Of a stretch of DNA of 64,000 nucleotides, positions 6,662 to 48,716 are shown in pieces. Every line of letters begins with the position of its first letter. Positions within the stretch are counted from its first letter, which is position 1. A program made the position numbers and the translations under genes. The stretch is from an uncultured Candidatus Rokubacteria bacterium (GTDB taxonomy: Bacteria > Methylomirabilota > Methylomirabilia > Rokubacteriales > DASRDR01): NCBI GenBank assembly GCA_963708025.1, contig CAVPSB010000022.1, forward strand, positions 32,001-96,000. Direction: 5' to 3'. Under the pieces are notes generated by a model. The model was given only the letters and a program-made list of their open reading frames with translations, had not been told where the DNA came from and ran no database searches.

Positions 6662-6772
6662 CGGGACCTCCCGCCCACCCGATCTTCGACGGCCTTCGGC
6701 CTGTGGCCCCCTCCCCCACCGTTGGACGGCCTTCGGCCTGTGGCCGGGGAGGGGGGGGTCGGAGGAACCGAA
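6662..6772 (-). repeat. Type A palindromic repeat with two hairpin modules
   Basis: Minus strand TCCGACCCCCCCCTCCCC-[CCACAGGCCGAAGGCCGTCCAA]-GGTGGGGGAGGGGG-[CCACAGGCCGAAGGCCGTCGA]-..GGGTGGGCGGGAGGT; matches five other loci. Confidence 0.85.
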
Positions 6773-6787
6773 CACACCCCGAAGCTC

Positions 6788-8017
6788 TCAGCGATGGCGG
6801 GCGAGGACGAGCGCGCCGGCGATCAGGACCAGCCCTCCCCCGCCCACGACCACCTGCTGTCCGGCGAGCTGGGCCAGGCCGCCGAGGAGGACGGGACCCA
6901 GGATCATGCCGGCGTCCAGCGAGATCCGGTACACGGCCAAGGGCGCGGGTGGCAGCGGGGTGCCGGCCCGATCGGACAGGACCATGGCCGGGATCATCCA
7001 CACCGCGAAGCCGCCCCCCACCAGGACGAGCCCGAGGACGAATGCGGTCGGGTGGCTGCCGGCGGCCAGGACGAGCCCCCCGAGGGCGACCGCGAGCGCC
7101 CCGCCCAGGAACAGCGGCTCACGCCGCACCCGGTCGATCACGACCCCGACCACGGACAGGCCGATCAGCTCGGCGACGTAGCCGGCGCCAAGCGCCCAGC
7201 CGATGGCCTGGCTCTCGAGGCCGTACCGGTCGTGACCGAGGAGCGGCGCCAGCGTCGCGAAGAGCCCGGACCAGGTCAGGCTCATGGTGAGGCACGCGGC
7301 GTAGATGGGCGCGAGCGCGCGCAGCTCGCCGCCCGGCACCCATCGCCCGGACGCCGCCTGGCCCGGAGGACGCCGACCGGCGTGCGGCCCGAGGGACGGC
7401 CAGGTCAGTCCGCAGAGGAGCATCACCCCGGCCGCGCCCAGGAAGACCGGGCGCCATCCCGCGTGCTGGGCGATGGTCGCGGCCAGCACGCCGCCCACCC
7501 CAAGGCTCAGGATCGCCATGCCCTCGAACGCGGTGGCCAGCCGCCCGCGCCAGGGCCCCGGCGCGGCCTCCAGCAGCTCGGCGAACACGGCGAGAAACGC
7601 GATCGACGACCCGAGTCCCATGACGAGCCGGCCGGCCAGGAACAGCGGGAAACCCAGGGCCACGCCACAGACCAGCGAGCCCGCCACGAGCCCGACCAGG
7701 CCCAGGAACACGGCCAGCCGGGTCCCCCAGCGGGCGCGGATCCGGCTCGCCGGGTAGCTGCCGGACAGCCGGCCGATCGCGTAGATCGTGTTGACGAGGC
7801 CGGCCTCGACCGTCGAGAGCCCCCAGTCGGCGGCGACGAGCGGCAGGATCGGCGGCAGCATCCCGACGGTGAACGCCGTCAGGACGTCGAGGACGAACAG
7901 CGGGACCAGCGGGCCGAGCACCGCGCGGGCGGAGGGGGCCGCCTCCGGTCCTCCGCGCCGGAAGACGTCCGGGGGGATGACCCCCGGACCCTTGCCGCGC
8001 GGCGACGTCGGCGTCAC
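6788..8017 (-). CDS. MFS transporter
   Basis: About 12 hydrophobic segments; motifs RIRARWGTR, GRLVMGLG, IDRVRRE. Confidence 0.9.
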   Translation of the reverse strand: MTPTSPRGKGPGVIPPDVFRRGGPEAAPSARAVLGPLVPLFVLDVLTAFTVGMLPPILPLVAADWGLSTVEAGLVNTIYAIGRLSGSYPASRIRARWGTRLAVFLGLVGLVAGSLVCGVALGFPLFLAGRLVMGLGSSIAFLAVFAELLEAAPGPWRGRLATAFEGMAILSLGVGGVLAATIAQHAGWRPVFLGAAGVMLLCGLTWPSLGPHAGRRPPGQAASGRWVPGGELRALAPIYAACLTMSLTWSGLFATLAPLLGHDRYGLESQAIGWALGAGYVAELIGLSVVGVVIDRVRREPLFLGGALAVALGGLVLAAGSHPTAFVLGLVLVGGGFAVWMIPAMVLSDRAGTPLPPAPLAVYRISLDAGMILGPVLLGGLAQLAGQQVVVGGGGLVLIAGALVLARHR

Positions 8018-10329
8018 CGGGCTCGGCCGGTCGTCTGCTCCTGCATGGCGCGCCAGAGCCGCTCCGGCGTGATCGGCAGGCGAGTCACCCGGACCCCGAC
8101 GGCGTCGAAGACCGCGTTGGCGATCGCCGGCGCGGTCGGCACCATCGCCGGCTCACCGATCCCGCGGGCGCCCCACGGGCCCATGCCCTCCCCGGACTCG
8201 AGGACGATCGAGGTGACGTCGGGGACGTCCAGCGCGGTCGGGATCAGGTACGTCATCAGGTTCGGCGTCACGGTGACACCGGCCGCCACCTTGTCCTCCT
8301 CGAGGAGGGCGTAGCCGATCCCCATGGCCGCTCCCCCCTCGATCTGCCCCTCGACGGAGTTCCGGTTGATCGCCTTGCCCACGTCGTAGCAGGCGGCGAG
8401 CCGCCGGACCTCGACCTCGCCGGTCGCCTCGTCGACCTCGACCTCCGCGGCCTGGGAGCCGAAGGTGAAGTCGGGGAAGACCTTGCCCTGGCCGGTCTCG
8501 AAGTCCATGACCTGGCCGGCCGGCGCCTGGTAGATGGCGAAGGCCGAGCGCGACCGGTGGGCCCGCGCGCAGGCGGCCGCCAGCTCCAGGAAGGAGACGG
8601 TCTTCGCTGGCGTGCCGTCGCCGCGTGCCCGGGCCAGCCCGTCGGCCAGCTCGATGGCCTCGGCCGGCACGTTGAGCAGCTCCGCCGACTGGGCCACGAG
8701 GGTCGCCCGCAGCTCGCCGGCCGCCTTGTAGACGGCCGAGCCCGACATGTAGAGCTGACGGGTCGCGGTGGTGGTGCCGGCCAGCGGCGTCAGGGCGGAG
8801 TCGCCGATGTGGATGGCGATCGCGTCGGTGGAGACGCCGAGCACCTCGGCCGCGATCTGGACCAGCGAGGCCGCCTGACCGCCGCCGATGTCCGGCACGC
8901 CCGTCCGGATGAGGACCGTGCCGTCCATCTGCAGCTCGACCCACGCGCTCGACCAGTCGTGGAGCCACACGATGCGGCCATAGGACGTCATGGCCGAGGC
9001 GAGGCCCCGCCCGACCCGCTTCCCCGGTCCCGACGGCGCGCCCCGCGGACCGAGCGCCTCCCAGGCGCGCCGCGCGGTCTCGGGCAGAAGCACCGCCGTC
9101 TCCAGCTCCTGACCCGAGGCGATGCGCTCTCCCTTGCGCAGGTAGTTCGTCTCGCGGAACGCGACCGGATCCAGCCCGAGCGTGTGGGCCAGGGCGTCCA
9201 TCTGGCTCTCGTAGGCGAAGGCCGGCTGGGCGGAGCCGAAGCCCCGGAAGGCCGAGGTCGGCGGGTTGTTGGTCAGCACCGAGACGCCGTCCACGGTGAC
9301 GTGAGGGATCCGGTACGGCCCGGCGGCGTGGACCATGGCGTAGAGCAGCGTCAGCGGCGAGAGGTAGGCGTAGCCGCCAGCATCCGAGATCAGCTCGACG
9401 GCGAGGGCGGTGAGGGTCCCGTCCTTCTTCGCCCCGTGCCGGTACTTCATGATGAACGGGTGCCGCTTGGTCGGCGAGAGGATCGACTCCTCCCGCGAGT
9501 AGCAGAGGCGGACGGGGCGGCGCGTCTTCGACACGAGGAGGCCCAGGAACACCTCGACGGTCACGTCCTCCTTGCCGCCGAAGCCGCCCCCGATGTAGGG
9601 CGCGATGATCCGGACCCGCGAGTGGGGGAGGCCGAGGACGTTGGCGACGTCCCGGAAGTGCTCGATCACCTGGGTGGCCACCCGGAGCGTGACCACGCCG
9701 TTCTCGTCGAGCCAGCCCACCCCGGCCTCCGGCTCGATGAAGGCGTGGTCGATGAAGCCGGTCCGGTAGGTGTGCTCGACGACGACGTCCGCGTCGCGGA
9801 AGCCGGCGCCGACGTCGCCCTTCCGGATCTTCCAGCGGGAGATGACGTTACCGGTCGGCTCGATCTGCGGGGCCCCGGGGCGCATCGCCGCCTCGGGGTC
9901 GAACACCCCGGGGAGGTCCTCGTACTCGACCGCGACCCGGCGCGCCGCGTCCTCGGCCGCCTCCTCGGTCTCGGCGGCGACCAGCGCCACCGCCTCGCCG
10001 AGGTAGCGTACGACCTCCTCGGCCAGCACCTGGGTCCGCGCCCGCAGGGGGCCGACGGCCGTCGTCTGGCCCGGCACGTCGCTGAACAGCACGTTGTGCG
10101 GGACGTCGCGGGCGGTGAGCACGCACTTCACGCCGGGCACCGCCTTGGCCGGGCCGGTGTCGATCTTCAGGATGCGAGCCGAGGGGCGGGTCGCCCGCAC
10201 GACGCGGGCGTGCAGCATGCCGGCGAGCGCCAAGTCGTCGGCGTAGCGGAGAAGGCCGTGGACCTTGTCGCGGGCGTCGAAGCGGGGGGCCCGCTCCCCG
10301 ACGGTGCGGAACCCCGGGGTCGCGCTCAT
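8014..10329 (-). CDS. Xanthine dehydrogenase-family molybdopterin-binding large subunit
   Basis: HAFIEPE, YIGGGFGGKED, AFRGFG, GQIEGG and ARGIGEP motifs; ATG overlaps the 2Fe-2S gene stop. Confidence 0.95.
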   Translation of the reverse strand: MSATPGFRTVGERAPRFDARDKVHGLLRYADDLALAGMLHARVVRATRPSARILKIDTGPAKAVPGVKCVLTARDVPHNVLFSDVPGQTTAVGPLRARTQVLAEEVVRYLGEAVALVAAETEEAAEDAARRVAVEYEDLPGVFDPEAAMRPGAPQIEPTGNVISRWKIRKGDVGAGFRDADVVVEHTYRTGFIDHAFIEPEAGVGWLDENGVVTLRVATQVIEHFRDVANVLGLPHSRVRIIAPYIGGGFGGKEDVTVEVFLGLLVSKTRRPVRLCYSREESILSPTKRHPFIMKYRHGAKKDGTLTALAVELISDAGGYAYLSPLTLLYAMVHAAGPYRIPHVTVDGVSVLTNNPPTSAFRGFGSAQPAFAYESQMDALAHTLGLDPVAFRETNYLRKGERIASGQELETAVLLPETARRAWEALGPRGAPSGPGKRVGRGLASAMTSYGRIVWLHDWSSAWVELQMDGTVLIRTGVPDIGGGQAASLVQIAAEVLGVSTDAIAIHIGDSALTPLAGTTTATRQLYMSGSAVYKAAGELRATLVAQSAELLNVPAEAIELADGLARARGDGTPAKTVSFLELAAACARAHRSRSAFAIYQAPAGQVMDFETGQGKVFPDFTFGSQAAEVEVDEATGEVEVRRLAACYDVGKAINRNSVEGQIEGGAAMGIGYALLEEDKVAAGVTVTPNLMTYLIPTALDVPDVTSIVLESGEGMGPWGARGIGEPAMVPTAPAIANAVFDAVGVRVTRLPITPERLWRAMQEQTTGRAR

Positions 10330-10802
10330 CGGTCGCCCACAATCATCCGGCGCGCGGCCGCCTCGGCGGCGTCGACGATCTTGTGGTAGCCGGTGCAGCG
10401 GCAGAGGTTGCCGCCGATCGCCTCGCGGATCTCCAGGCGGCTCGGGCGCGGACGCTCCTGGAGAAAGGCGTAGAGCGAGACGAGCATCCCGGGGATGCAG
10501 ATCCCGCACTGGGCGGCGCCCAGCTCGACGAAGGCCGCCTGGAGCGGATGGGGCGCCTCCGGGCCGCCCAGCCCGCGCACGGTCAGCACCGCCTTCCCCT
10601 CGGCCTGGACGGCCAAGGCCAGGCAGGAGTTGATCGCCTTGCCGTCCAGCACGACGGCGCAGGCGCCGCAGTCCCCGCGCTCGCAGCCCGACTTCACCTC
10701 GGTGGCGGCCAGGCGCTGGCGGAGGACCCAGAGCAGGGTCTCGTGGGGCTCGACCGGCACCCGGGTCCGCTCGCCATTGAGCGTCAGCTCGATCGTGAGG
10801 AT
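10326..10802 (-). CDS. (2Fe-2S)-binding small subunit (CoxS/XdhC-like); no canonical start at the expected position
   Basis: KSGCERGDCGAC...NSCL, QCGICIPG, GNLCRCTGY. Confidence 0.92.
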   Translation of the reverse strand: MLTIELTLNGERTRVPVEPHETLLWVLRQRLAATEVKSGCERGDCGACAVVLDGKAINSCLALAVQAEGKAVLTVRGLGGPEAPHPLQAAFVELGAAQCGICIPGMLVSLYAFLQERPRPSRLEIREAIGGNLCRCTGYHKIVDAAEAAARRMIVGDR

Positions 10803-10805
10803 TTT

Positions 10806-10922
10806 TGGGAACCTCCCTCCTACCCGATCCTTCGACGGCCTTCGGCCTTTGGCCCCCCTCCCCACCCGTTGGACGGCCTTCGGCCTGTGGCGGGGGGGAG
10901 GGGGGAGCCGGAGGAACCCGAG
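10806..10922 (-). repeat. Type A palindromic repeat with two modules, at the FAD/2Fe-2S junction
   Basis: Near-identical to 6662-6772. Confidence 0.85.
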
Positions 10923-10924
10923 TG

Positions 10925-11787
10925 CCGGCGCTCTCTCGAAGGCCGGTTTGTGTGAGCGCTCGGGCCACGAGGGCCCGGACCATCGCGCGCCGGTAGTCGT
11001 CGCCGCCCCGCACGTCGCTGATGGGCTGGGACGCGGCGGCCGCGGCCTCCGCCGCGCGCCCGACGCGCTCGGGCGTCAACGCCTCGCCCGCGAGCTGGGC
11101 CTCCGCCTCGCGGGCGCGAAACGGGCGGGGCGCCACCGCGCCGAGCGCCACGGCGGCGCTCACGCAGCGCCCGGCCCCGTCCAGCTCGACTCGCGTCGCG
11201 ACGCTCACGACCGCGATGGCGCCCCCGCGCTTGAGGCCGAGCTTGTAGAAGAGCTGCCGGCCCGCCGGGCGAGGCACCTCGACGGCCCGGATCAGCTCAC
11301 CGGGCCCCAGGGCCGTCCGCCGGGGTCCGAGCAGGAACGCGTCGAGGGTGATCACCCGCTCGCCCGCCGCCCCGGTCAGCACGAGGCGGGCGTCGAGGGC
11401 CAGGAGCGGCACCACCAGGTCGGCGCCCGGGCTCGCGTTGGCCAGGTTGCCGCCGAGCGTCGCCTTGTTGCGGGTCAGGAAGTCGGCGAAGTCGTGGGCT
11501 GCCCGGTGGAGCGCCGGGACCCACTCGGCGACGAGAGGGGAGGCCAGCAACTCGCCCACGGTCACCCCGCCACCGATGCGGAGGACGCCGTCGGTGGCCT
11601 CGATGCCGCGAAGATCGGCCAGCTCGGCGACGTCCACGAGCAGCGCGGGCGCCTGCCGCCGTTCCCGGAGGTCCACCAGGAGGTCCGTCCCCCCCGCCAG
11701 GGCCCGCGCGTCGGGGTGCTCCGCCAGGAGCGCCACGGCCTCGCGGAGCGCGGTGGCACGCCGGTACTCGAAGCGCGGCAGCAGCAT
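10925..11787 (-). CDS. FAD-binding medium subunit (CoxM/XdhB-like); 3' end unresolved because no stop occurs before the repeat
   Basis: ALAGGTDLL, RNKATLGGNLANASPGAD, PISDVRGGDDYRR. Confidence 0.9.
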
Positions 11788-11807
11788 GCGCGCCCGACGC
11801 CCCGGCG

Positions 11808-12377
11808 CTACTCGGGGATGACGATCAGGGGTGTCTCGATGTCGCCGTTGGAGAGGATCTGGATCTCTTGCCGCGATTCCGTCCTTCCCTGGGCGTTCTC
11901 CTGCTCGACGGTCACGTGCGTCTCCCGGCTGAAGGCCGGCACGCTGCCGAAGCCCCGCGAGGGCCGGGGGCTCGAGGCCCCGGCGCTACCCGGGAGCTGG
12001 TCCACCGTGATCCGGGTCGTGGGGGCCCCGCCGCTCACGTTGGGAGCCAGGCTGGCCGGCGCCCGGCCGCTGACGTTCGGAGGCGGGCTGGTCGTGGACC
12101 GGTTGATGATCCGGACTTCCTGGGTCACGGCCGGCACGCTGGCGCCGGCCGAGGGCGCGCCGGCCGAGGGCGCGGCGGCCCGGCCGCTGCCGGCGACGCT
12201 CGCGCCCGGCTGCACGACGATCCGCGTGTCCGTGACGGCACCGCCCGCCGCCGGGGCGCGGGGGTTGACGATGATCGGCACCACGACCCGGCCCTGCGCC
12301 AGTGCCTCGCCGGCCCCGGCGACGCCGAGGCCGACGCCGATCGCGAGTGAGACGAACACGGTCATTGCCCTCGTCAT
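11808..12377 (-). CDS. Hypothetical exported low-complexity protein
   Basis: Signal peptide ending ALA-Q, GGAGGAG RBS, ATGA overlap with the moaD stop, high GC3. Confidence 0.7.
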   Translation of the reverse strand: MTRAMTVFVSLAIGVGLGVAGAGEALAQGRVVVPIIVNPRAPAAGGAVTDTRIVVQPGASVAGSGRAAAPSAGAPSAGASVPAVTQEVRIINRSTTSPPPNVSGRAPASLAPNVSGGAPTTRITVDQLPGSAGASSPRPSRGFGSVPAFSRETHVTVEQENAQGRTESRQEIQILSNGDIETPLIVIPE

Positions 12378-12616
12378 GGCGTATCTCCTCCCCCACCCTG
12401 GATGGCGGGAATGAATGTCACCTCGTCTCCGTCGCGCAGCACGGTGCCGTCGGGGGCGGAGGCGCCGTTGACGGCCGCGTGAACCTCGAGGCCGGACACC
12501 CCGAGCCGCTGCATCGCCTGGAACACGGTGGCGCCGCCGGGCAGCTCGAGCCGGATCTCGTCGCCGCCGTTGGGTCCGCAGGCGAGGCCGAAGACGTACT
12601 TCACGGTAACGAGCAT
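12374..12616 (-). CDS. MoaD/ThiS-family sulfur carrier
   Basis: AAVNG...LRDGDEVTFIPAIQGG ubiquitin-like motif. Confidence 0.85.
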   Translation of the reverse strand: MLVTVKYVFGLACGPNGGDEIRLELPGGATVFQAMQRLGVSGLEVHAAVNGASAPDGTVLRDGDEVTFIPAIQGGGGDTP

Positions 12617-12629
12617 CGGCCCGGGCGCG

Positions 12630-13124: not shown

Positions 13125-13158
13125 GCTGAGCCTCCCCCGAGCTGGATGAACCACGACC

Positions 13159-13841: not shown

Positions 13842-13858
13842 GGCGGCGTCCGTGAAAA

Positions 13859-16264: not shown

Positions 16265-16268
16265 GCCC

Positions 16269-18268: not shown

Positions 18269-18322
18269 GTGAGATCTCGACGAACGCCGCTCATCGGGGC
18301 CGGGCCCGGATCCCAGCCCCGG

Positions 18323-18420
18323 CCAAAGGCCGAAGGCCATCCGATCGACGCAGGGAGGAGGCGGGCCGAGGCGTATGCCGCATACGTCCATCTGGTCGCG
18401 ACGCCTCGGGCCTGCGGCCC
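18323..18420. repeat. Type B repeat (CGTA..TACG palindrome plus hairpin module)
   Basis: Reverse complement ACGTATGCGGCATACGCCT..CCCTGCGTCGATCGGATGGCCTTCGGCCT aligns with 47047-47117. Confidence 0.65.
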
Positions 18421-18532
18421 TCGGGACGTCGCTCCCTTCTGGGAGGCCCGCCGACGACCCCAGAGGCCGGGACGTCCGCGGCCCGGCCGAGATGAACGGA
18501 CGACCCGGGGCGAAGGGGACTGGCCCGGCCCC

Positions 18533-21725: not shown

Positions 21726-21730
21726 TAGTT

Positions 21731-21822
21731 CGGCACCTCCCGCCCACCCGATTCCTCGACGGCCTTCGGCCTTTGGCCCCCTCCCCCACCCACTGGGGGG
21801 AGGGGGGAGCCGGAGCACCGGA
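21731..21822 (-). repeat. Type A repeat with one module
   Basis: TCCGGCTCCCCCCTCCCCCCAGTGGGTGGGGGAGGGGG-[CCAAAGGCCGAAGGCCGTCGA]-..GGGTGGGCGGGAGGT. Confidence 0.85.
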
Positions 21823-21837
21823 TTCTTTCACGCGCGC

Positions 21838-22612
21838 TCAGGGGAGCCAATCGCGCAGCGGCTTCACCTGGATGCCGGCCCGGTCCAGCGCCTCCCGGAC
21901 CGCCCGGACGATGCGCTCGGCCCCCGGCGTGTCGCCGTGGCAGCAGATCGTCTGGACGCTGATGTCGATGTCCACGCCGTCGATCGTCCGGACCTTCCCC
22001 TCGGACGCCATCCGGACCGCCTGGGCGGCCGCCCGCTCGGGATCCGTGATGAGCGCCCCGGCCTTCTTCCGCGAGACGAGCGTGCCCGTCCACCTCGTAG
22101 GCGCGGTCCGCGAAGCCCTCGGAGGCCACGCGGGCGCCCATCTTCCGGCAGTGGGCGTCGAACTTCCCCGAGGCCAGCGTCATCAGGATGAGCCGCTCGC
22201 CCGACTCCCGCGACGCCTCGCCGATGGCCTGGGCGAGCGCCTCCTGCCCTTCGGCCATGGTGTAGAGGATGCCGTGGGGCTTGACGTGCTGCAGCTCGAC
22301 GCCGGCCGCCCGGCAGAACTCCCGGACCGCGCCCACCTGGTAGCAGACGTAGTCCTTCAGCTCGGCCGGCGTCACGTCCATCACCCGGCGTCCGAAGCCC
22401 ATGAGGTCGGGGAGCGAGGGATGGGCGCCGACCGCGACCCGGTGCCGCAACGCCAGGGCCACGGTCTTGCGGATCACGTGGGGGTCCCCGCCGTGGAACC
22501 CGCAGGCGACGTTGGCCGAGGAGATGTGGGGCATGACGGCCTCGTCGGCCCCGAGGGTCCAGCGCCCGTAGGACTCGCCCATGTCGCAGTTGAGGTCGAT
22601 CACCTTCGCCAT
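21838..22612 (-). CDS. pxpA: 5-oxoprolinase subunit PxpA (LamB/YcsF); frameshift near 22086
   Basis: IDLNCDMGES, ANVACGFHGGDP, GAHPS, HVKPHG, EGFADRAY, TICCHGDTPGA. Confidence 0.93.
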
Positions 22613-25274: not shown

Positions 25275-25365
25275 GGCGTCCCTCCGCTCACTTCCAACAG
25301 CCCATCGGCTTCTCCCGACCCTTCGGCTCAGGCCACGCCGTCATGGCGTTCCGCTTCGAGCCGCG

Positions 25366-25440
25366 GCCCAAAGGCCGAAGGCCGTCCAACAGTCGCGGCC
25401 TCCGCGGGGGGAATCGGGGGGGTCTTCCGAGACCCCCCCG
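25366..25440. repeat. Hairpin module plus type C G-run/C-run palindrome
   Basis: CCCAAAGGCCGAAGGCCGTCCAA followed by CGGGGGGGTCTTCCGAGACCCCCCCG. Confidence 0.7.
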
Positions 25441-25444
25441 AATG

Positions 25445-27100
25445 TCATCCCTCGATGTACGGCGTCGACAGCTGGAACCACTCCTCTGGCGGATTGACGA
25501 ACCCCTTGACCTTCGGGCTCAGCACGACCAGGTTCAGGTCGTTGCAGATCGGCAGGTACGCGGCATCTTCTTCCATGATGATGCGGTCGGCCTGCCGGTA
25601 CAGCCCGGCCCGCTTCGACTCGTTCTGCTCCTCACGCGCCTGGTCGAGCAGCTTGTCGACCTTCGGGTTGGCATACCAGCCGACGTTCACACCCTTGTTG
25701 GGCTGCCGCTCCGAGCGGGCGACGATGTCGATCCAGAAGTTCGTGGTCATGCCCCAGGAGAGCTGGTAGGCTCCGTGGCCCGGCCGCAGCCCCTGGAACA
25801 TCTTCGACAGGTAGGTGATCCAGTCGAACGTCTCGAGCTTCACGCGGATGCCGACCTTGGCCAGGTCCCGCTGGATCCACTCGGCCATCGGCACCGGGAT
25901 CATCTGGCCCGAGCCGGACGTTGAGGTCCAGAAGACCGTCTCGAACCCGTTCGGGTGGCCGGCCTCCTTGAGGAGCTGCTTCGCCTTGTCGGGGTTGTAC
26001 GAGTACGGCTTGTACTTGGGGTCGTAGGCGATGGTGGCCGGCGAGACCATGCTCCCGGCCGGCCGGGCCGTCCCCCGCAGCAGCTCCCTGCACATCCGGT
26101 CCTTGTCCACGGCCATCTGGACGGCCTTCCGGACCCGGACGTCCTTGAAGTACTCGTCCTTCATGTTCAGGTGCCAGTACCAGATGTGGGGCGCGTTGCT
26201 CTGCAGGATGGTGTACTTGTCCTTCCGCAGGGCCTCGACCTCGTCGGGTGGGGGCGCCAGGATGAAGTTAACCTCCCCGGTCCGCAGGGCGGCCACCCGC
26301 GCGGCCGGGTCGTCCAGCCGCCGGAAGACCAGCTTGTCGACGTTCGGGGCCGGCCCCCAGTAGTCCTTGAACCGCTCCAGCACGATCCGGTCGTTGGGGA
26401 CGTTCTCGACGAGCTTGAAGGGGCCGGTGCCGACCGGGCTGTCCGCGAACTTCTCGTTGCCGACCTTCTTGAGCTGGGCGGGACTGACCATCAGCGGCTC
26501 GCCCCAGCTCTGCAGCCCCATGCGCTCCCACTCCGCGTACGGCTTGCTGAAGGTCAGCTTCAGCGTGTAGTCGTTGACCGCCTCGGCCCCGGTGACGTAC
26601 TCGACGACGTAGGAGGTGTAGCTGTTGGCCCGGGCGTAGAAGTGGGGCGCGTCCTTCTTGTACATCCGCTCCCAGCTGAAGACGGCGGCGTGGGCGTCGA
26701 AGGGCGTCCCGTCGTGGAACTTGACGCCCTTCCGGAGCTTGAAGATCCGGGTCAGCCCGTCCTTCGACAGCGTCCAGGACTCGGCGAGCCGGGGCACCAC
26801 CGGCGGCACCACCACGTCGGCTCGGGTCAAATCCTCCGCGAGCAGCCCCTCGAACATCTGGTAGGTGACCCGGTAGGTCAGCCAGCAGCCGGTCGCCTGG
26901 GGATCCAGGATGTCCGACGGGCCTTCCATGCCGTAGACCAGCGTGCCGCCCTTCTTCGGCGCCGCCTTCGCCTGAGCCCGAGCCCCCGCCGGCATCGCCA
27001 GGGAGCCGGCCGCGCCCACCGCGGTGGTGCGGAGAAAGTCCCGGCGGCTCAGCCCGCTCTTCAGCATCCGGAGCATCCGACCAATCTTCTCGGCGTCCAT
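25445..27100 (-). CDS. Peptide/nickel-type (family 5) ABC substrate-binding protein, Tat signal
   Basis: SRRDFL, LRKGVKFHDGTPF, PVGTGPF, VRVRKAV. Confidence 0.95.
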   Translation of the reverse strand: MDAEKIGRMLRMLKSGLSRRDFLRTTAVGAAGSLAMPAGARAQAKAAPKKGGTLVYGMEGPSDILDPQATGCWLTYRVTYQMFEGLLAEDLTRADVVVPPVVPRLAESWTLSKDGLTRIFKLRKGVKFHDGTPFDAHAAVFSWERMYKKDAPHFYARANSYTSYVVEYVTGAEAVNDYTLKLTFSKPYAEWERMGLQSWGEPLMVSPAQLKKVGNEKFADSPVGTGPFKLVENVPNDRIVLERFKDYWGPAPNVDKLVFRRLDDPAARVAALRTGEVNFILAPPPDEVEALRKDKYTILQSNAPHIWYWHLNMKDEYFKDVRVRKAVQMAVDKDRMCRELLRGTARPAGSMVSPATIAYDPKYKPYSYNPDKAKQLLKEAGHPNGFETVFWTSTSGSGQMIPVPMAEWIQRDLAKVGIRVKLETFDWITYLSKMFQGLRPGHGAYQLSWGMTTNFWIDIVARSERQPNKGVNVGWYANPKVDKLLDQAREEQNESKRAGLYRQADRIIMEEDAAYLPICNDLNLVVLSPKVKGFVNPPEEWFQLSTPYIEG

Positions 27101-27136
27101 CGGAGACCTCCCTCTTCTTGGTGATGGGTCACAGTT

Positions 27137-27210
27137 TCGGAACCCCCGCCCACCCCCCCAACCCCCCTCCCCCACCCGCTGGGGGGAGGGGGGAGCCGGA
27201 CAACCCGATT
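27137..27210 (-). repeat. Type A repeat without module
   Basis: TCCGGCTCCCCCCTCCCCCCAGCGGGTGGGGGAGGGGGGTTGGGGGGGTGGGCGGGGGTTCC. Confidence 0.85.
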
Positions 27211-27224
27211 CCTTCAACGCGCGC

Positions 27225-28115
27225 TCAGCGCCGCGAGCGCGGATTCAGCGCCTCCCGCAGCCCCTCGCCGACGAAATTGAAGGCGAGGGCCACGGCCACG
27301 ATGATGACCCCGGGGATGGTGGCCACGTGGGCGGCCCGGTAGAGGACCAGCCGTCCGTTGCCGACCATCACGCCCCAGTCCGGTGTCGGCGGCTGCACCC
27401 CCAGTCCGAGGAAGGAGAGCCCGGCCGACGCGACGATCATCATTCCGATCAGGGTACTCGTGTAGACCAGGAGCGGGGGCAGGACGTTGGGCAGGACGTG
27501 GCGACCCAGGATCCGCGGGTTGGCCGCGCCGGCACCCCGCGCCGCCTCGACGAACTCGAGCTGCTTGACCGACAGGGTCGACGTCCGAACCACTCGCGTG
27601 CTGTACGGGATCAGGACGACCGTCAGGGCGAACATCTGGTTGCCCACCCCGGGCCCGATCACCCCGACGATCGCGATCGCCAGCAGCACCAGCGGGAAGG
27701 CGAAGAAGACGTCGAGCAGCCGCATGATCAGGTGATCGAGAAACCCCTCGTAGTAGCCGGCCACCATCCCCAGCGCGAGGGCGCAGGTCCCCGCCACCAG
27801 GGTCGGCAGCATGCCTACGAGCAGGGAGACCCGGCCGCCCCAGATGAGCCGGCTCAGGATGTCCCGTCCCTGCTCGTCGGTGCCCAGCCAGAACCCCGGG
27901 CTTCCCGGCGGCGCCAGCCGCATCGTCTCCGCCGCCAGCGGATCGTGGGGGCTGACGAGCGGCGCCGCGATCGCGGCGCCCGCCGCGATCAGGATGATCG
28001 CGCTCCCGGTCACCGCCTGCCGGTCGCGGCAGAACAGGCGCGCGAAGGCGGCCAGGGCGGACGACGACCAGGGCCGCGGCGGTCTCGCCCGCTCCAGGGT
28101 CAGCACGGTCGCCAT
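27225..28115 (-). CDS. Peptide ABC permease (OppC/DppC-like)
   Basis: LGTDEQGRDILSRL, EAA loop EFVEAARGAGA, LSFLGLG. Confidence 0.93.
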   Translation of the reverse strand: MATVLTLERARPPRPWSSSALAAFARLFCRDRQAVTGSAIILIAAGAAIAAPLVSPHDPLAAETMRLAPPGSPGFWLGTDEQGRDILSRLIWGGRVSLLVGMLPTLVAGTCALALGMVAGYYEGFLDHLIMRLLDVFFAFPLVLLAIAIVGVIGPGVGNQMFALTVVLIPYSTRVVRTSTLSVKQLEFVEAARGAGAANPRILGRHVLPNVLPPLLVYTSTLIGMMIVASAGLSFLGLGVQPPTPDWGVMVGNGRLVLYRAAHVATIPGVIIVAVALAFNFVGEGLREALNPRSRR

Positions 28116-32331: not shown

Positions 32332-32338
32332 CAGTATT

Positions 32339-32402
32339 GGGACCTCCCGCCCACCCCCCCAGCCCCCCTCCCCCACCCACCGGGGGGAGGGGGGGGCCGG
32401 AA
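32339..32402 (-). repeat. Type A repeat without module
   Basis: TTCCGGCCCCCCCCTCCCCCCGGTGGGTGGGGGAGGGGGGCTGGGGGGGTGGGCGGGAGGTCCC. Confidence 0.85.
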
Positions 32403-32421
32403 GCATCGATCCCACGCGTTC

Positions 32422-34113
32422 TCAGACCTGAAGGAACCGCTTCCCCAGGAACCGCTGGCCTACGGCGACGATGACGAGGGTGATCAGGAGGAGCAGCACC
32501 CCCAGGCTGGAGACCGCCTCCCACAGCCCCTCCTCGTAGAGGGTGTAGATGACGACGGAGACCACCCGGGAGCGCGCCGTGAAGAGCAGGATCGAGGAGG
32601 ACAGCTCCCGGAGGCTCGGCAGGAAGACGAGCAGCCAGGCCGAGGCGAGCCCGGCCCCCAGGAGCGGCACCGTCACGTCCTTCACGGCCGTGAGCCGGCC
32701 GGCGCCCAGGATCCGCGCGGCGTCCTCCAGGTCCGGGTGGACCGTCGACATCGCCGCCGCGCAGGCGGTGTAGGCGACCGGCAGGTACTTGGTCAGGTAA
32801 GCGACGAAGATGATCCAGATCGTGCCGTAGAGGAGGAGCGGCGGCCGCGAGTAGGCGGTGAAGAGCCCGATCGACAGCACGATGCCCGGCACCGCCAGCG
32901 GGGCCGTGGCCAGGAAGGCGAGCAGGCGGGCGCCCCGCAGGAGCCGCCGGTGCGCGACGTAGGCGATCCCGGCCATCAGCAGCGCCGCCAGCGTGGCGGT
33001 CACGAACCCCAGCAGCAGCGTGTTGACGATGGCCGAGCGCGTCGGGTCGTACTCGAACAGGACGAAGCGGAAGTTGCGCAGCGTGAGGTTCTCCCAGCTC
33101 CAGCCGAGCCCCCACGCCTTGGCCAGCGCCGCCCGGAGCAGCGCGAAGTACGGAAGGACGATCCCGCAGCCGAGGACCACGGCGCAGCCGCCGAGCGCGG
33201 GCCAGCGCCAGCGGCCCAGGGCCACCGGGCGGGGAGCGGTGCCGCGCCCACCGACCGTGGTGTAGGTACGGCGGCCGACGAGCCGCCGCTGGATCCAGAG
33301 GAGGCCGGCCGCGCAGACGAGGAGCGGCATCGCGTAGGCGGCGGCCACCTCGACCTTCGGCGGGTAGTGAAAGAAGGCCCAGAGCTGGGTGGTCATGACG
33401 TGGAAGCGGGCGGGCAGCGCGAGCATCGCCGGGGCGCCGAAGAGCACCAGCGTCTCCAGGAACGCCAGGATGAACCCACCCGCGATCGCCGGGACGGCCA
33501 GGGGGAACGTCACGTCGCGCAGGACCGACCACCGGCCGGCGCCGGCGATGCGGGCCGCGTCCTCCAGGTCGGCCGGCGTGGCGGTGAGCGCGGCCCCGGT
33601 CAGGATGAAGACGACCGGGAACGTGTAGAGGCTCGTCACGAAGATGAGCCCGGTCATCGAGAAGATGTTGACGAGGGGCGCCTCGGCGCCGGTCAGCGCG
33701 CGCCAGAGCACGTTGACGAGGCCGGCGTTGGGGCCGGCCAGGATGACCCAGGCGGTGGCGCCCAGGAAGGACGGCGTGACGAAGGCCGCGACGGTGAGCG
33801 TGCGGATCGCGTCCTTCCCCGGCAGGTCGGTGCGGCCGACCAGCCAGGCCATCGGGGCGCCGATCAGGACGCTCAGGATGCCGACCGCCGTCGCGTAGAC
33901 GAAGGAGTTCACGATCGGCCCCCGGTAGATCGGCCGCCCGAAGGCGGCCACGAAGTTGGCCAGGCTGGGGCCGCCCGGCGTGCTGAAGCTCGAGGCCACC
34001 AGGATGCCGAGCGGCGCCACGACCAGGACGGCGAGGACGGCGGCGTTGAGGAGCCAGACGAGCGCGCTCGCGTCGACCGCCCTCGCCCCTCTGACGCCGC
34101 CGTCCGGAGCCAT
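32422..34113 (-). CDS. FbpB-like double-domain ABC permease
   Basis: Two EAA loops (DLEDAARIAGA, DLEDAARILGA); about 12 TM segments. Confidence 0.93.
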   Translation of the reverse strand: MAPDGGVRGARAVDASALVWLLNAAVLAVLVVAPLGILVASSFSTPGGPSLANFVAAFGRPIYRGPIVNSFVYATAVGILSVLIGAPMAWLVGRTDLPGKDAIRTLTVAAFVTPSFLGATAWVILAGPNAGLVNVLWRALTGAEAPLVNIFSMTGLIFVTSLYTFPVVFILTGAALTATPADLEDAARIAGAGRWSVLRDVTFPLAVPAIAGGFILAFLETLVLFGAPAMLALPARFHVMTTQLWAFFHYPPKVEVAAAYAMPLLVCAAGLLWIQRRLVGRRTYTTVGGRGTAPRPVALGRWRWPALGGCAVVLGCGIVLPYFALLRAALAKAWGLGWSWENLTLRNFRFVLFEYDPTRSAIVNTLLLGFVTATLAALLMAGIAYVAHRRLLRGARLLAFLATAPLAVPGIVLSIGLFTAYSRPPLLLYGTIWIIFVAYLTKYLPVAYTACAAAMSTVHPDLEDAARILGAGRLTAVKDVTVPLLGAGLASAWLLVFLPSLRELSSSILLFTARSRVVSVVIYTLYEEGLWEAVSSLGVLLLLITLVIVAVGQRFLGKRFLQV

Positions 34114-41435: not shown

Positions 41436-41541
41436 TGGCTAGCGGGCGGGGCCGATGAGCGTCGCATCGCGTCGTCCTCGGTCGGCGCCGATCCTAGCGA
41501 GACCATCCTTGCACCCGTGACGGCGCGCCGAGTGCAGCTCC

Positions 41542-42954: not shown

Positions 42955-43016
42955 CGTCGTCCTCCTGTAGGGGTTGGCGGAAGCTCCGTCCCGGTGAGCG
43001 AACGGCCTACGGGTGT

Positions 43017-43132
43017 TCTATACTCCAAACCCCCCGGGGGTCGCAATAGCCCTGCCGCTCGGGCGGGCGGCACCGGGGCCCGGAAAAATCGCACTTTGGC
43101 CCTTGACTCGGCCGGCGGAGTGCTCCTAAGAT
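43017..43132. promoter_or_regulatory. Divergent sigma70-like promoters
   Basis: Minus strand TTGCGA-N18-TATAGA (43017-43046); plus strand TTGACT-N18-TAAGAT (43103-43132). Confidence 0.55.
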
Positions 43133-43159
43133 AGCGCCACTCACCGTACCCGGAGGCCC

Positions 43160-43942
43160 GTGGTCATCCATATTCGCCTGCGCCGCCGTTGCGCCCGGCT
43201 GGGCGTCCTCGCCCTCGTCGCTCCCCTTCTCCTCACCGGCTGCTCGCTCTTCGGCAGCAAGCCCTCGACGCTGGCGCCGGCCGGCAAGCTCTACGAGGAC
43301 GGCGAGCGGGACCTCGATCGCCGCCGCTTCGATGCCGCCCGCGACAACCTGCGGAAGATCATCGAGCGCCATCCCGACTCGAACCTGGTCCCCCAGGCCC
43401 GCTTCCTGATCGGCGAGAGCTACTACCGAGATGAGGAGTACGAGAAGGCCGTCCGCGAGTTCGAGGCCTTCATGAGCCTCTATCCCGGCAACCCGATCGC
43501 CGACCTCGCCCAGTACCGCCTGGCCCGGAGTTACTTCGACAACATGCCGTCGGTCGAGCGCGACCAGGCGGTGACGGCGAAGGCGGTCGGCGAGTTCCAG
43601 AAGCTCATCAAGCAGTACCCCGAGAGCCGGTACGCGCCCGACGCGATCGGCAAGATCGAGGTGTGCCGCCTCCGCCTGGCGCAGAAGGAGCTGTGGGTCG
43701 CCGACTACTACGTGCGCCAGAACAACTGGCAGGCCGCCCTCCAGCGCTACGACATGATCCTCAAGGAGTACGGCCGCACGGCGGCCGCCCCCCAGGCGCT
43801 CCTTCAGAAGGCCGACGCGCTGCTCCGCCTCCAGCGCAGGGAGGAGGCCGAGATCACGCTCCGCCGGGTGGTGGAGGAGTTCCCCGACAGCGAGTGGGCG
43901 CGACGGGCCCGGCAGAGGCAAACCTCGCTCATTTCCCAATAG
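43160..43942 (+). CDS. bamD: Outer membrane protein assembly factor BamD
   Basis: Lipobox LTGC, TPR helices, RDQ motif, ELWVADYY, AALQRY. Confidence 0.9.
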   Translation: MVIHIRLRRRCARLGVLALVAPLLLTGCSLFGSKPSTLAPAGKLYEDGERDLDRRRFDAARDNLRKIIERHPDSNLVPQARFLIGESYYRDEEYEKAVREFEAFMSLYPGNPIADLAQYRLARSYFDNMPSVERDQAVTAKAVGEFQKLIKQYPESRYAPDAIGKIEVCRLRLAQKELWVADYYVRQNNWQAALQRYDMILKEYGRTAAAPQALLQKADALLRLQRREEAEITLRRVVEEFPDSEWARRARQRQTSLISQ

Positions 43943-43955
43943 GAGCCGACCTTCC

Positions 43956-44993
43956 ATGCACGACATCGTGGACCTGCGGTCCGACACCCTCACCACCCCG
44001 ACGCCCGAGATGCGGGCGGCCATGGCGTCCGCCGAGGTCGGCGACGACGTCTGGGAGGAAGACCCGACCGTCCAGCGGCTCGAGGCGCGGGCCGCCGAGC
44101 GGTTCGGGAAGGACGCGGGCCTGTTCGTGGCCTCCGGCACCATGGGCAACCAGGTGGCGATCCTTACCCACACCCAGCCCGGCCAGGAGGTCATCTGCGA
44201 CGTCGACGCGCACGTCATGAGCGCCGAGGTGGGCGGGATCGCGCGGCTGGCCCTCTGCCAGACCCGGCCGCTCCAGACCGAGCGGGGCCTGCCGAGCCCC
44301 GACCAGGTCCGGACCGCCATCCGCCCCCGGAACATCCACATCCCGGTCACCGGTCTCCTCGCCCTCGAGAACACCCACAACCGCCACAGCGGCGTCGCCT
44401 TCACCCCCGAGGAGGTCGGAGCCGTGGCCGCCGTCGCCCACCAGCACGGCGTGCCGGTCCACCTCGACGGGGCCCGCATCTTCAACGCCTGCGTCGCCCT
44501 CGGCCGCGACGCCCGCGAGTTCGGCGCGGTCGTGGACTCGGTGCAGTTCTGCCTCTCCAAGGGGCTGGGGGCACCGGTCGGCTCCCTCATCGTCGGCTCC
44601 CGGGAGTTCATCGCCGGGGCCCGGCGGGTGCGCAAGATGCTCGGGGGCGGGATGCGGCAGGTCGGCGTGCTGGCGGCGGCCGGGCTCCTGGCGCTGGACA
44701 AGGGCGTCGACCGGCTCGCCGACGACCACGCGAACGCCCGCCGGCTGGCGGAAGCCCTGGTCGGCCTCCGGCAGATCCGCCTCGACCTCGCGCGGGTCCA
44801 GACCAACATCGTGATCGTCCACGTCGATCGGCCGGGCGGCGTCGCCGAGCTGGTCGAGGGGTGCCGGGCCCGGAAGGTGAAGATCCACGCCATCGGCCCC
44901 ACGTCCATTCGCTTGTGCACGCACCGGGACGTGGACTCGGAGGACGTCGACCGCGCGATTGCCGCGATCCGCGAGATCGCGGCCGGCTGGTGA
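43956..44993 (+). CDS. ltaE: Low-specificity L-threonine aldolase
   Basis: DLRSDT, GDDVWEEDPT, SGTMGN, HLDGAR, CLSKGLGAPVG. Confidence 0.95.
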   Translation: MHDIVDLRSDTLTTPTPEMRAAMASAEVGDDVWEEDPTVQRLEARAAERFGKDAGLFVASGTMGNQVAILTHTQPGQEVICDVDAHVMSAEVGGIARLALCQTRPLQTERGLPSPDQVRTAIRPRNIHIPVTGLLALENTHNRHSGVAFTPEEVGAVAAVAHQHGVPVHLDGARIFNACVALGRDAREFGAVVDSVQFCLSKGLGAPVGSLIVGSREFIAGARRVRKMLGGGMRQVGVLAAAGLLALDKGVDRLADDHANARRLAEALVGLRQIRLDLARVQTNIVIVHVDRPGGVAELVEGCRARKVKIHAIGPTSIRLCTHRDVDSEDVDRAIAAIREIAAGW

Positions 44994-45998: not shown

Positions 45999-46973
<975 letters not shown>

Positions 46974-47046
46974 CCGGCCGTGCCGATAACCGTCGCATCC
47001 CGTCGTCGTTCGGACGGCCTGGTCGACCTTTGGCGGTCGTCGCCGA

Positions 47047-47117
47047 TCCTCGGCGTACTCGGAGTACGCCTGCGAATGTCGGCGAACCCCTGCGTCGGTC
47101 GGACGGCCTTCGGCCTC
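47047..47117. repeat. Type B repeat
   Basis: GGCGTACTCGGAGTACGCCT..CCCTGCGTCGGTCGGACGGCCTTCGGCCT. Confidence 0.65.
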
Positions 47118-47153
47118 GGGGGCTGCTCGGTTCTTGGCCCGGCTCGTCCCCCA

Positions 47154-47963
47154 GTGCCCGATGTGGTCCGCAAGCCCGCGGTCGCCGGTAGCTTCTACCC
47201 GGGCGATGCGCAGGCGATCGACGCCGAGCTGACCCGACTCCTCCCCGCGCGGCCGGCGACCGCGGCCCGCGCCGTCGTCGTCCCCCACGCCGGCTGGATG
47301 TACTCGGGCACCGTCGCCGGCGAGACGTACGCCCACGTGACCGTGCCCCGGCTGGCCGTCCTGCTCGGTCCCAATCACACCGGCCTCGGACTCCCCGGCG
47401 CGTTGATGGGCGAGGGGGCGTGGCGCTATCCGGGCGCGACGGTGCCAGTGGCGCGGGAGCTGGCCGCGGCGCTGCTGGGGGCGACGGACGAGTTGGCCCC
47501 GGACTCGGCCGCCCACCTCCGCGAGCACGCCCTGGAGGTGCAGCTCCCCTTCCTGCATCGCCGACAGCCGGAGCTGGCGGTGGTGCCGATCACCCTCGGC
47601 CGCATCGACCCCCGCTTCTGCCGCGCGGTGGGCGAGGCGGTCGGCCGCGTCGTGGCCGGCTGGCCCGCCCCCGTGCTCGTCGTCGACTCGACCGACCTCA
47701 ACCACTACGAGCCCCAGGCCATCGGCCGCCGTAAGGACCGCCTCGCCATCGACGCCATCCTCGCCCTCGACCCGGAGCGACTGCGGGAGGCCGTCCGGGC
47801 GCACCAGATCTCGATGTGCGGCCTGGCGCCGACCCAGGCGCTCCTGTGGGCGGCGCCGGCCCTCGGGATCCGGTCCGCGCGGCTGGTGCGATACCAGACC
47901 TCCGGCGACGTCTCCGGCGACCTGGCGCGGGTCGTGGGCTACGCCGGCATCATCCTGGAGTAG
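47154..47963 (+). CDS. Memo-like AmmeMemoRadiSam system protein B
   Basis: RKPAVAGSFYP, PHAGWMYSG, GPNH, EHALEVQLPF, STDLNHY, SMCG, VVGY. Confidence 0.92.
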   Translation: MPDVVRKPAVAGSFYPGDAQAIDAELTRLLPARPATAARAVVVPHAGWMYSGTVAGETYAHVTVPRLAVLLGPNHTGLGLPGALMGEGAWRYPGATVPVARELAAALLGATDELAPDSAAHLREHALEVQLPFLHRRQPELAVVPITLGRIDPRFCRAVGEAVGRVVAGWPAPVLVVDSTDLNHYEPQAIGRRKDRLAIDAILALDPERLREAVRAHQISMCGLAPTQALLWAAPALGIRSARLVRYQTSGDVSGDLARVVGYAGIILE

Positions 47964-47967
47964 CCCG

Positions 47968-48066
47968 ATGCCGACGCTGATCGGCAGTCCGATCATCGCG
48001 TGGGTGACCTACCAGGTCCGCCGCGGGAAGCGACCGCAGCTCCCGGAGACGGACCGGCCGCGGTGA
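47968..48066 (+). CDS. Small ORF (32 aa) or gene remnant
   Basis: MPTLIGSPIIAWVTYQVRRGKRPQLPETDRPR; high GC3; TGA overlaps the GTG of the next gene. Confidence 0.4.
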   Translation: MPTLIGSPIIAWVTYQVRRGKRPQLPETDRPR

Positions 48067-48623
48067 GCACGACCATCGAGGCGCTGGCGGCCGAGGACGT
48101 CGCCCGGGACCGGGCGGCGCTGAGCGCGCTCCTGGTGGACGCCGTGGACGGCGGCGCGTCGATCGGGTTTCTCCCACCGCTCGGCGAGGGCGAAGCGGCG
48201 GCCTACTGGGACACGGTGGCCGCCACGCTCCGCGACGGCTCCCGCCTCCTGCTGGCCGCCCGGACGCCCGAGGGTGGCGTGGTCGGCAGCGTCCAGCTCG
48301 ACCTCGCCATGCGCGTCAACGCCCGCCACCGGGCCGAGGTGATGCGGCTCATGGTTCACCGGCGCGCCCGGCGCCACGGTCTCGGGCGCGCCCTGATGCT
48401 CGCGATCGAGGAGCACGCCCGCCGGCTGGGGCGCACCACGCTGGTCCTGGACACCCGGCAGGGCGACCCGTCCGAGCGCCTCTACCAGTCGCTCGGCTGG
48501 ACGCTGGCCGGGACGATCCCCCGCTACGCGCGGAGCGCCGACGGCACCCTCGACGCCACCGCCCTCTACTACCGCCTCCTGGACCCCTGTGAGACCCGTG
48601 AGGCAATCGCCGCGCCCGGGTAG
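48063..48623 (+). CDS. GNAT N-acetyltransferase
   Basis: DAVDGGASIGFLPP, HRAEV, VHRRARRHGLG, LVLDT, LY..LGW. Confidence 0.9.
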   Translation: MSTTIEALAAEDVARDRAALSALLVDAVDGGASIGFLPPLGEGEAAAYWDTVAATLRDGSRLLLAARTPEGGVVGSVQLDLAMRVNARHRAEVMRLMVHRRARRHGLGRALMLAIEEHARRLGRTTLVLDTRQGDPSERLYQSLGWTLAGTIPRYARSADGTLDATALYYRLLDPCETREAIAAPG

Positions 48624-48636
48624 CCTGGGAGTCGCG

Positions 48637-48714
48637 AGGTCCGACCCCCCTCCCCCCAGCCACAGGCCGAAGGCCATCGACGAATCGGGAGGGGACGGGG
48701 GTGGGGGAGGCCTC
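48637..48714 (+). repeat. Type A repeat variant with one module
   Basis: GTCCGACCCCCCTCCCCCCAG-[CCACAGGCCGAAGGCCATCGA]-CGAATCGGGAGGGGACGGGGGTGGGGGAGG. Confidence 0.75.
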
Positions 48715-48716
48715 GA

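Follow-up and report, generated by a model that had tools for sequence, protein, structure and literature searches.

Introduction

Mosaic intergenic repeats are known mainly from Proteobacteria, and the RAYT transposase is thought to move them. Bacterial interspersed mosaic elements (BIMEs) are known to bind IHF, gyrase, and Pol I, and hairpin miniature inverted-repeat transposable elements that nest in one another are represented by Correia/NEMIS, ERIC, and RUP. Here we describe a 21-nt hairpin cassette, or module, with the 12-nt core AGGCCGAAGGCC, nested in several families of larger intergenic repeats of an uncultured Candidatus Rokubacteria soil bacterium. The DNA analysed, called the window, is a stretch of 64,000 nucleotides of contig CAVPSB010000022.1 (G000:C22:32001-96000) from a genome of 8,166,589 bases in 49 contigs, with 71.2% GC and 99.67% completeness. 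The reading we prefer, to which we give an even chance, is that the cassette is an optional part of structured intergenic repeats that form a hierarchical mosaic, and that it has spread passively, mostly with its hosts.

Repetitive extragenic palindromic sequences (REPs) are described as GC-rich extragenic palindromes of 21-65 bp that occur in hundreds of copies, single or in mosaics with other motifs. Their places are the ends of genes and intergenic regions that are transcribed; they cause no target duplication and carry a GTAG-type foot 5' of the palindrome (PMC3184786). For mycobacterial interspersed repetitive units (MIRUs), a -4 stop/start coupling is described (PMC12548453).

The closest known kind for the repeats studied here is the REP/BIME mosaic of Enterobacteria and Pseudomonas. 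The module is likewise a 21-nt unit, present in ~480-570 copies, intergenic, and combined with other blocks in host families that we call A, A', B, and C. As in BIMEs, there is a block mosaic (termini, S1, central hairpin, S2, block X, S3), found in 15 of 16 combinations. The descriptive features of REPs and of mosaics are therefore present, but membership in the REP-RAYT system fails. Neighbouring modules less than 300 nt apart are direct in 154 of 156 pairs instead of alternating or inverted, no RAYT is found in this genome, and the module is nested in the loops of larger hairpins and not placed beside other motifs. The foot differs as well, since the 5' flank of the module is CCA[A/C]A and its 3' flank is GTC. 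Like the REPIN-RAYT system, this one has a small hairpin unit, a lineage-specific distribution, and no target duplication, but all links to RAYT that we tested failed, and the unit is a singlet in direct arrays and not an inverted doublet. A likeness to MIRUs is found in a ~56-nt element of a sister genus, called g3, in which 18 of 42 occurrences have a mini-ORF with an overlapping TGA, and in family A, which also lies between co-directional genes. The g3 element, however, is absent from this genome, and family A keeps no reading frame. Finally, the repeats resemble Correia/NEMIS, ERIC, and RUP in being structured, non-coding elements at gene ends, with stems kept by compensatory changes and elements within elements, but the nested unit is only 21 nt and has neither terminal inverted repeats of its own nor a target duplication.

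The module is a discrete 21-nt cassette

A first-pass annotation of the window, made from the sequence by a model, had listed nine places for a hairpin module. An exact AGGCCGAAGGCC was found at all nine of them, offset by 3-5 nt, and the window contains nine exact copies. With up to one mismatch allowed, 11 matches were found compared to 1.08 expected, a number that none of 100 shuffles reached. The one-mismatch matches at 31572 and 61072 are without module flanks and lie inside coding-like sequence. Genome-wide enumeration, which the annotation had proposed, gave 569 exact copies in 8.17 Mb. A position matrix of 568 copies reads CCA[A/C]A-GGCCGAAGGCC-GTC[C/G][A/G]A (CC 96%, A 82%, A/C, AGGCCGAAGGCC, G 96%, T 92%, C 92%, C/G, A/G, A 75%), with a sharp 5' edge at -4 and a weaker 3' extension. 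It agrees with the consensus CCA.AGGCCGAAGGCCGTC.A that had been read from the window.

Flanks were classified for the 566 copies that lie at least 150 nt from contig ends, and 484 of these have the flanks CCNN...GTC. The 38 copies left unclassified consist of 15 with full flanks, mostly variants of known hosts, and 23 without flanks, which for the most part fall within coding-like sequence and are apparently chance or codon-driven matches. Every classified copy lies within intergenic repeats, and no module was observed by itself in unique intergenic DNA.

The module is thus a discrete cassette of 21 nt, made up of the invariant 19-mer CCA[A/C]AGGCCGAAGGCCGTC and 1-2 linking bases. This unit length is visible in the lengths of its hosts. 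Between the termini, the 168 copies of family B measure 71/92, 112/133/154, or 166/187/208/229 nt, that is, 21-nt steps, and the 238 copies of family A measure 81-85, 103-106, or 124-127 nt with zero, one, or two modules. Modules also occur in tandem, with 31 pairs spaced 19-21 nt (period 20-21 nt), and one locus on contig C15 is a run of about a dozen 21-nt units.

The window has no Rfam match at the gathering threshold, and the family B loci of seven relatives, searched together with window positions 46900-48800, have none at E values up to 1. The 19-mer has no match in viral contigs. No literature joining Rokubacteria with the term "repetitive extragenic palindromic" was found in a search that did not extend to supplements; within the same limits, published uses of the module 11-mer or its complement appear to be unrelated, judging by titles and abstracts.

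Four families of host repeats

Host families were found by anchoring on the module and clustering its flanks, and the orientations of the surrounding genes were taken from local codon-position GC calls. For family A, 238 copies were counted in which both head and tail match strictly, and hairpin cores that lack a module number 225. A copy starts at the TGA of the upstream gene (TGAGAG...), continues with a C-run/G-run hairpin, and ends in GGGTGGGCGGGAGGTCCCGAAC, commonly followed by TGAG. The family lies in sense orientation between co-directional genes and often supplies a Shine-Dalgarno-like GGGAGG; a start codon is found 4-14 nt after GGAGG in 41 of 117 evaluable copies. As the annotation had noticed, copies of this type in the window contain no module (27137, 32339), one (21761, 48664), or two (6691 and 6728; 10837 and 10875). 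In family A', a block-X-like hairpin with two modules is placed inside the loop of an A hairpin. A coupled mini-cistron was considered for family A and rejected, as the 81-85 nt lengths are spread over all three phases. On contig C2 (~216080-216620), at least six tandem units of ~100 nt lie head to tail, each a module-less family A hairpin with its tail.

Family B has 168 copies between conserved termini and 229 nhmmer hits. It is a rod-like hairpin of ~113 nt, and since its right end abuts CTA, the TAG stop of an opposite-strand gene, the family is antisense to its flanking genes. Among copies with a module at site S1, both neighbours are antisense in 45, and 9 are convergent, 6 divergent, and 6 sense. 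The two ends are complementary; the outermost 6-7 bp vary from copy to copy and are still complementary. The flanks are complementary and not direct. Family C, with 38 module copies, is also antisense. Here, the module sits in the loop of a stem whose sequence varies among copies with complementarity kept, and a G-run/C-run hairpin follows this stem. The same module is found in unrelated hosts, as had been noted for the window, where the copies at 18327 and 47105 belong to family B and the copy at 25372 to family C.

Some minor features of family B were also recorded. At least five genera of the bacterial family carry the rod after stop codons, and its internal loops are conserved in sequence. 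About 55 nt to the left of its left terminus are moderately conserved in most copies genome-wide. On the gene strand, this ~55-nt stretch contains an 8-codon ATG...TAG frame, and CTAG, which also follows the right terminus, stands at its beginning or its end.

The module occupies loops and bulges of its hosts

The module occupies at least seven sites in the four families, and these are always unpaired loops or bulges. The annotation had proposed that module-plus and module-minus hosts be compared, and their aligned flanks defined the insertion points: S1, S2, and a third site in block X for family B, and pos1 and pos2 for family A. Across sites, 3-4 nt are replaced by 24-25 nt, a net gain of 21 nt, and no target duplication was seen at the junctions. 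In family B, the minus state is CTAG at S1 and CGAG at S2, and these 4 nt give way to 25 nt when the module is present. The minus alleles among 145 parsed copies are GCTAG in 59 and CGAG in 71. The tip of the block X hairpin reads AGGCCG[T/C]AGGCC.

The structure of family B was derived from an alignment of 22 module-less sequences, 15 from this genome and 7 from relatives. It contains 42 pairs, 18 of them compensatory, with 96.9% of cells paired. None of 500 shuffles reached this result, and slid controls gave 5-9 compensatory pairs. S1 and S2 face different sides of the rod; at each, two bases are left unpaired between a C and a G that both take part in pairs. The A-pos1 and family C sites are terminal loops. 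Since all sites are loops or bulges of the host, only places that spare the helices are occupied.

Module-less family B elements represent the older state

The 19-mer was searched in 201 genomes of the phylum. This genome contains it 390 times, and 10 of 11 genomes of the sister genus g3 contain it 6-62 times each. A single further copy comes from 1 of the 125 genomes that represent the neighbouring family, with none elsewhere in the sample; genera g2 and g4-g7 have 0 copies. Public contigs that contain the 19-mer are nearly all titled as Candidatus Rokubacteria or Methylomirabilota metagenome-assembled genomes.

Family B-like elements have a wider distribution, at low copy, in g2, g5, g7, and g3. 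The copies retrieved from these genera that show the full architecture are ~113 nt long, and all have CTAG or CAAG at S1 and CGAG at S2. Family B rods after the same gene in two species (L063, L064) differ by compensatory changes. Because genera without the module carry the ~113-nt form with the CTAG/CAAG and CGAG bulges, the module-less state of family B is the older one, to which the module was added later.

In g3, the identical 19-mer is found in other hosts, namely a GTGA-junction element and an X-like hairpin that resembles block X of family B. There, the module heads a ~56-nt element at GTGA/ATGA stop/start overlaps (e.g. L016, L021, L027, L028, L036, L038, L046, L052). The 3' end of this element stops two frames (TAG, and a TGA overlapping GTG), and the third frame continues into the next gene. 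The 42 junction occurrences include 18 mini-ORFs of 19-49 codons with a TGA that overlaps the GTG or ATG start of the following ORF, in agreement with the -4 coupling of MIRUs, 10 that end in TAG, and 11 in-frame read-throughs. Since these outcomes are about equal, no particular frame is selected. The arrays of g3 show an expansion of ten-nt half-units on either side of the loop.

Most copies were probably inherited with their hosts or exchanged between them

The module is optional, lacking in about half of the parsed B copies and in most A copies. Variants were counted among full-flank copies at each site. At B-S1, CCCAC is dominant (53/93); at B-S2, CCCAA (42/55) with the junction CGAAC (41/55); at B-S3, the junction CGATC (23/30); at A-pos2, GCCAA (67/83); and in family C, the junction CAACA (19/37). 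With a different variant prevailing at every site, it is probable that most modules multiplied together with their hosts or moved between homologous sites by exchange. Trees built from host sequence only point the same way for two sites. The states at S2 require 25 changes compared to 43.7 +/- 2.5 with shuffled labels, and those at A-pos2 require 16 compared to 32.1 +/- 1.7, so both are clustered.

Exchange between copies was also apparent. In family B, 15 of the 16 combinations of host subtype, S1, S2, and block X occur, and in family A all four combinations of pos1 and pos2 occur. The 71-nt form of family B equals the 154-nt form minus 83 nt, which is what recombination between two modules would leave. 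The near-complete set of block combinations, together with this form, indicates that exchange is frequent.

Window positions 6001-26000 were also compared with four DNA metagenome runs. The contig pieces obtained were ~225-1089 nt long with none spanning, and they contained no orthologous 21-nt gain or loss. The same contigs show 1-nt length differences in C and G runs of the repeats (window 6683, 21776, 25405). Every bin that contains repeats shows a peak of metagenome depth, and these repeat families are therefore multi-copy in the sampled communities as well.

A mobilizing enzyme was not found in this genome

The annotation had suggested that the module may be a recognition hairpin for an HUH-type nuclease. 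This suggestion did not hold. The Pfam family Y1_Tnp (PF01797) has 0 matches in this genome; a control search gave matches in 6 of 14 named genomes. Y1_Tnp is present in 9 of 15 g3 genomes compared to 0 of 5 genomes of other genera, but no module lies within ~1.5 kb of any of the 10 g3 Y1 loci, and in the three loci whose repeats were analysed the gene has an unrelated inverted repeat of 28-42 nt on its two sides. The direct orientation of module pairs and the lack of a GTAG-type foot point in the same direction.

Two observations concern the Y1 genes themselves. The g3 gene with the Y1_Tnp domain (L065-L074) encodes 313 aa and recurs in the same position beside the same neighbour gene. On contig C31 of this genome, near 133290-133490 and 146135-146335, there are two gene-less inverted pairs, ~12.8 kb apart, of a repeat very similar to that of the g3 Y1 loci.

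DUF559 has 0 matches in this genome, and the only GIY-YIG match is a frame of 641 aa, presumably UvrC-like, with no small protein of this kind. No gene-bearing copy bounded by family B termini was found. One candidate for an autonomous copy, with family B termini 1.8 kb apart (window 41450-43256), was rejected as a chance match by a solute-binding-protein gene plus a fragment of the right half of family B. Four head-to-tail pairs of family A lie 0.5-2.9 kb apart.

The module is predicted to fold and keeps one sense on the best-folding host strand

The module is predicted to fold into a 4-bp GGCC/GGCC stem with a 3-nt loop. Taken alone, the 33-nt module stretch is no more stably folded than shuffled sequences (z -0.08 to -1.7). 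A C(UUCG)G tetraloop had been proposed for the inferred mRNA of the B and C hosts; the antisense reading instead folds as the same GGCC/GGCC stem and 3-nt loop, and a UUCG loop would put the stem out of register. The orientations that had been inferred were confirmed: the module runs in the sense of the genes in A and against them in B and C, and because of this it is not one mRNA signal.

The wobble pairs of the hosts are kept on the strand that reads GGCC-GAA-GGCC, by 275 to 13 in family A and, in family B, with 28 G-T compared to 5 A-C. On the strand on which its hosts fold best, the module thus has one constant sense. This bias may be a sign that folding takes place in one given strand, as single-stranded RNA or DNA.

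How the cassette may have spread

Under passive spread, the cassette would have entered each site a few times through template switching or ectopic gene conversion between repeats, or through slippage. The ~480-570 copies would then have been reached mostly by host amplification and segment exchange. Only insertions into loops would survive because they leave the fold of the host unbroken, and a dedicated enzyme would be unnecessary. Several results weigh against this view. On the host-only trees, the states at B-S1 require 46 changes compared to 48.2 +/- 3.3 with shuffled labels, and those at A-pos1 require 44 compared to 48.3 +/- 2.7. The 3' junctions at both sites are very heterogeneous, and within one class the S1 junction diverges by 32%, the host by 3.3%, and the module core by 0.3%. 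This scatter suggests that the cassette may still be inserted or excised at S1 and A-pos1; such turnover is only suggestive since the trees rest on ~100 poorly informative columns. No microhomology rule between donor and acceptor was found at the module junctions. The module is present at S1 in 108 copies here and in single copies in 4 of 15 g3 genomes (2 exact, 2 with one mismatch), and the B-S1 insertion may predate the split from the sister genus. An ancestral module-less state is established for family B only, family A being essentially confined to this genome (225 copies compared to 1 in 20 relatives). In addition, two genera share an identical 19-mer in different hosts. Such identity asks for strong constraint, e.g. 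from a recognizing protein, or for recent transfer, and neither is part of the passive account.

Much of this evidence could be explained if the module were an active micro-element, with a structure-specific enzyme that repeatedly inserts the 21-nt hairpin into single-stranded loops without target duplication. The occupation of at least seven loop and bulge sites in four host families, states at S1 and A-pos1 that are uncorrelated with the host backbone, junctions as heterogeneous as many separate events would give, and the 19-mer shared by different hosts of two genera would all fit. The copy-varying yet complementary stems of family C and of the outer part of family B could even mean that loop insertion took place at two levels. 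Nevertheless, we consider this explanation unlikely. Neither Y1_Tnp nor DUF559 nor a small GIY-YIG protein is present, there is no gene-bearing version, the variants specific to S2, S3, A-pos2, and C speak for joint inheritance of module and host, and no module is seen by itself in unique intergenic DNA. To our knowledge, a mobile unit of 21 nt is also without precedent. The annotation had called the module an independently spreading element, and one part of this stands: the module is separable from its hosts, as seen in the 21-nt steps, the number of sites, and the other hosts in g3. The site-specific variants, on the other hand, leave only part of the copy number to be explained by independent spread. 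That the cassette itself is the unit of spread, through a non-RAYT structure-specific activity common to the two Rokubacteria genera, is a minority possibility in our judgement. A different role for protein recognition is that of a selected signal, in which a binding or processing site, or an RNA or single-stranded DNA hairpin that tunes its host, was recruited repeatedly. The low divergence of the core compared to the host and the S1 junction, its identity across two genera, and the wobble bias that puts the module in the same sense on the best-folding strand would agree with this. We doubt it, however, because the module is optional at every site, is sense in A and antisense in B and C, and is no more stable alone than shuffles. 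Most host positions in the same copies are invariant too, and the wobble counts are features of family consensuses and not independent events. The remaining two explanations fare much worse. That the module is a REP moved by RAYT, an HUH Y1 transposase, is largely refuted. As a short GC-rich extragenic palindrome with hundreds of copies and no target duplication, it resembles REPs as described in PMC3184786, and Y1_Tnp does occur in the only other module-bearing genus. However, the most copy-rich genome, the present one, lacks Y1_Tnp, the Y1 loci of g3 lack the module and have a different inverted repeat, and neither the direct pairs nor the flanks fit. A single long ancestral element with the sequences of A, B, and C, from which module-less copies arose by deletion, had been named in the annotation as the scenario that would refute its reading. 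Shared blocks and the block-X-like hairpin in the A' loop are in its favour, and recombination between modules does delete sequence (154 - 83 = 71 nt). We find it very improbable all the same. Module-less genera carry the family B rod, and module-less family B is not derivable from the plus state by simple deletion; the minus alleles are uniform, unlike the products of repeat deletion, and families A and B differ in gene orientation and flanks.

If the cassette were the unit of spread after all, no smaller self-propagating DNA module would be known, and loop targeting would explain why family B rods lie inside copy-specific complementary stems at gene ends. A REP/BIME-like architecture without RAYT is present in a little-studied soil phylum. 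With its 21-nt steps, defined loop sites, and ancestral module-less hosts, it offers a countable system for how very short sequences reach new places, with recombination, template switching, and an enzyme as candidate routes, and for whether cassettes alter the folded repeats that lie between operon genes and at the ends of genes. In practice, the consequences are modest: the repeats break short-read assemblies and keep spurious frames open across gene boundaries.

Repeats of the window and their surroundings

The copies and hosts located in the window are listed in Table 1.

Table 1. Module cores and host repeats in the window (window coordinates)
Feature	Position	Strand	Details
Module core, family A copy 1, loop position (pos1)	6728..6739	-	exact AGGCCGAAGGCC
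Module core, family A copy 1, pos2 (after G-arm)	6691..6702	-	exact AGGCCGAAGGCC
Family A host 1, two modules, approximate bounds	6656..6800	-	C-run/G-run hairpin 6708-6759, GGGCGGGAGGT tail 6666-6676
Module core, family A copy 2, pos1	10875..10886	-	exact AGGCCGAAGGCC
Module core, family A copy 2, pos2	10837..10848	-	exact AGGCCGAAGGCC
Family A host 2, two modules, approximate bounds	10800..10945	-	hairpin 10855-10910
Module core in degenerate family B-like copy	18327..18338	+	GACGCAGGGAG 18347-18357, central hairpin 18367-18388
Module core, family A copy 3, pos2 only	21761..21772	-	exact AGGCCGAAGGCC
Family A host 3, one module, approximate bounds	21727..21845	-	hairpin 21778-21812, tail 21735-21745
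Module core in family C host, loop of CCGCGG/CGCGG stem	25372..25383	+	exact AGGCCGAAGGCC
Family C host, approximate bounds	25300..25450	+	G-run/C-run hairpin 25417-25438
Family A host, no module	27130..27230	-	hairpin 27164-27198
Family A host, no module	32335..32425	-	hairpin 32365-32397, tail 32342-32352
Family B right-half fragment, no module	41442..41496	-	nhmmer E 4.6e-11, profile positions 76-130
Family B host	46975..47144	-	nhmmer E 1.2e-17
Module core at site S1, family B host	47105..47116	-	exact AGGCCGAAGGCC
Family A-type host, one module, approximate bounds	48630..48716	+	between GNAT and ABC-F genes; start codon directly follows
Module core, family A-type host, loop position	48664..48675	+	exact AGGCCGAAGGCC; 3' flank ATC

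Family A host 1 spans from the TGA stop of an MFS-transporter gene to upstream of a LemA gene. Host 2 separates operon neighbours, the genes for the FAD-binding and molybdopterin subunits of a xanthine-dehydrogenase/CO-dehydrogenase-type enzyme, and the start codon of a HAD-hydrolase gene comes directly after host 3. The family C host adjoins the stop of a solute-binding-protein gene on the opposite strand. The family B host lies between ABC ATPase and Memo-like genes, both on the + strand, and is antisense to them. In the degenerate family B-like copy, the left terminus is unrecognizable and the 3' flank is ATC instead of GTC.

The part of the window from 40001 to 44000 has a G+C content of 0.656, compared to 0.71-0.75 elsewhere. 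It contains a gene for a solute-binding protein with a TAT signal (41542-42954, - strand) and an ABC permease gene, and the family B fragment follows the former.

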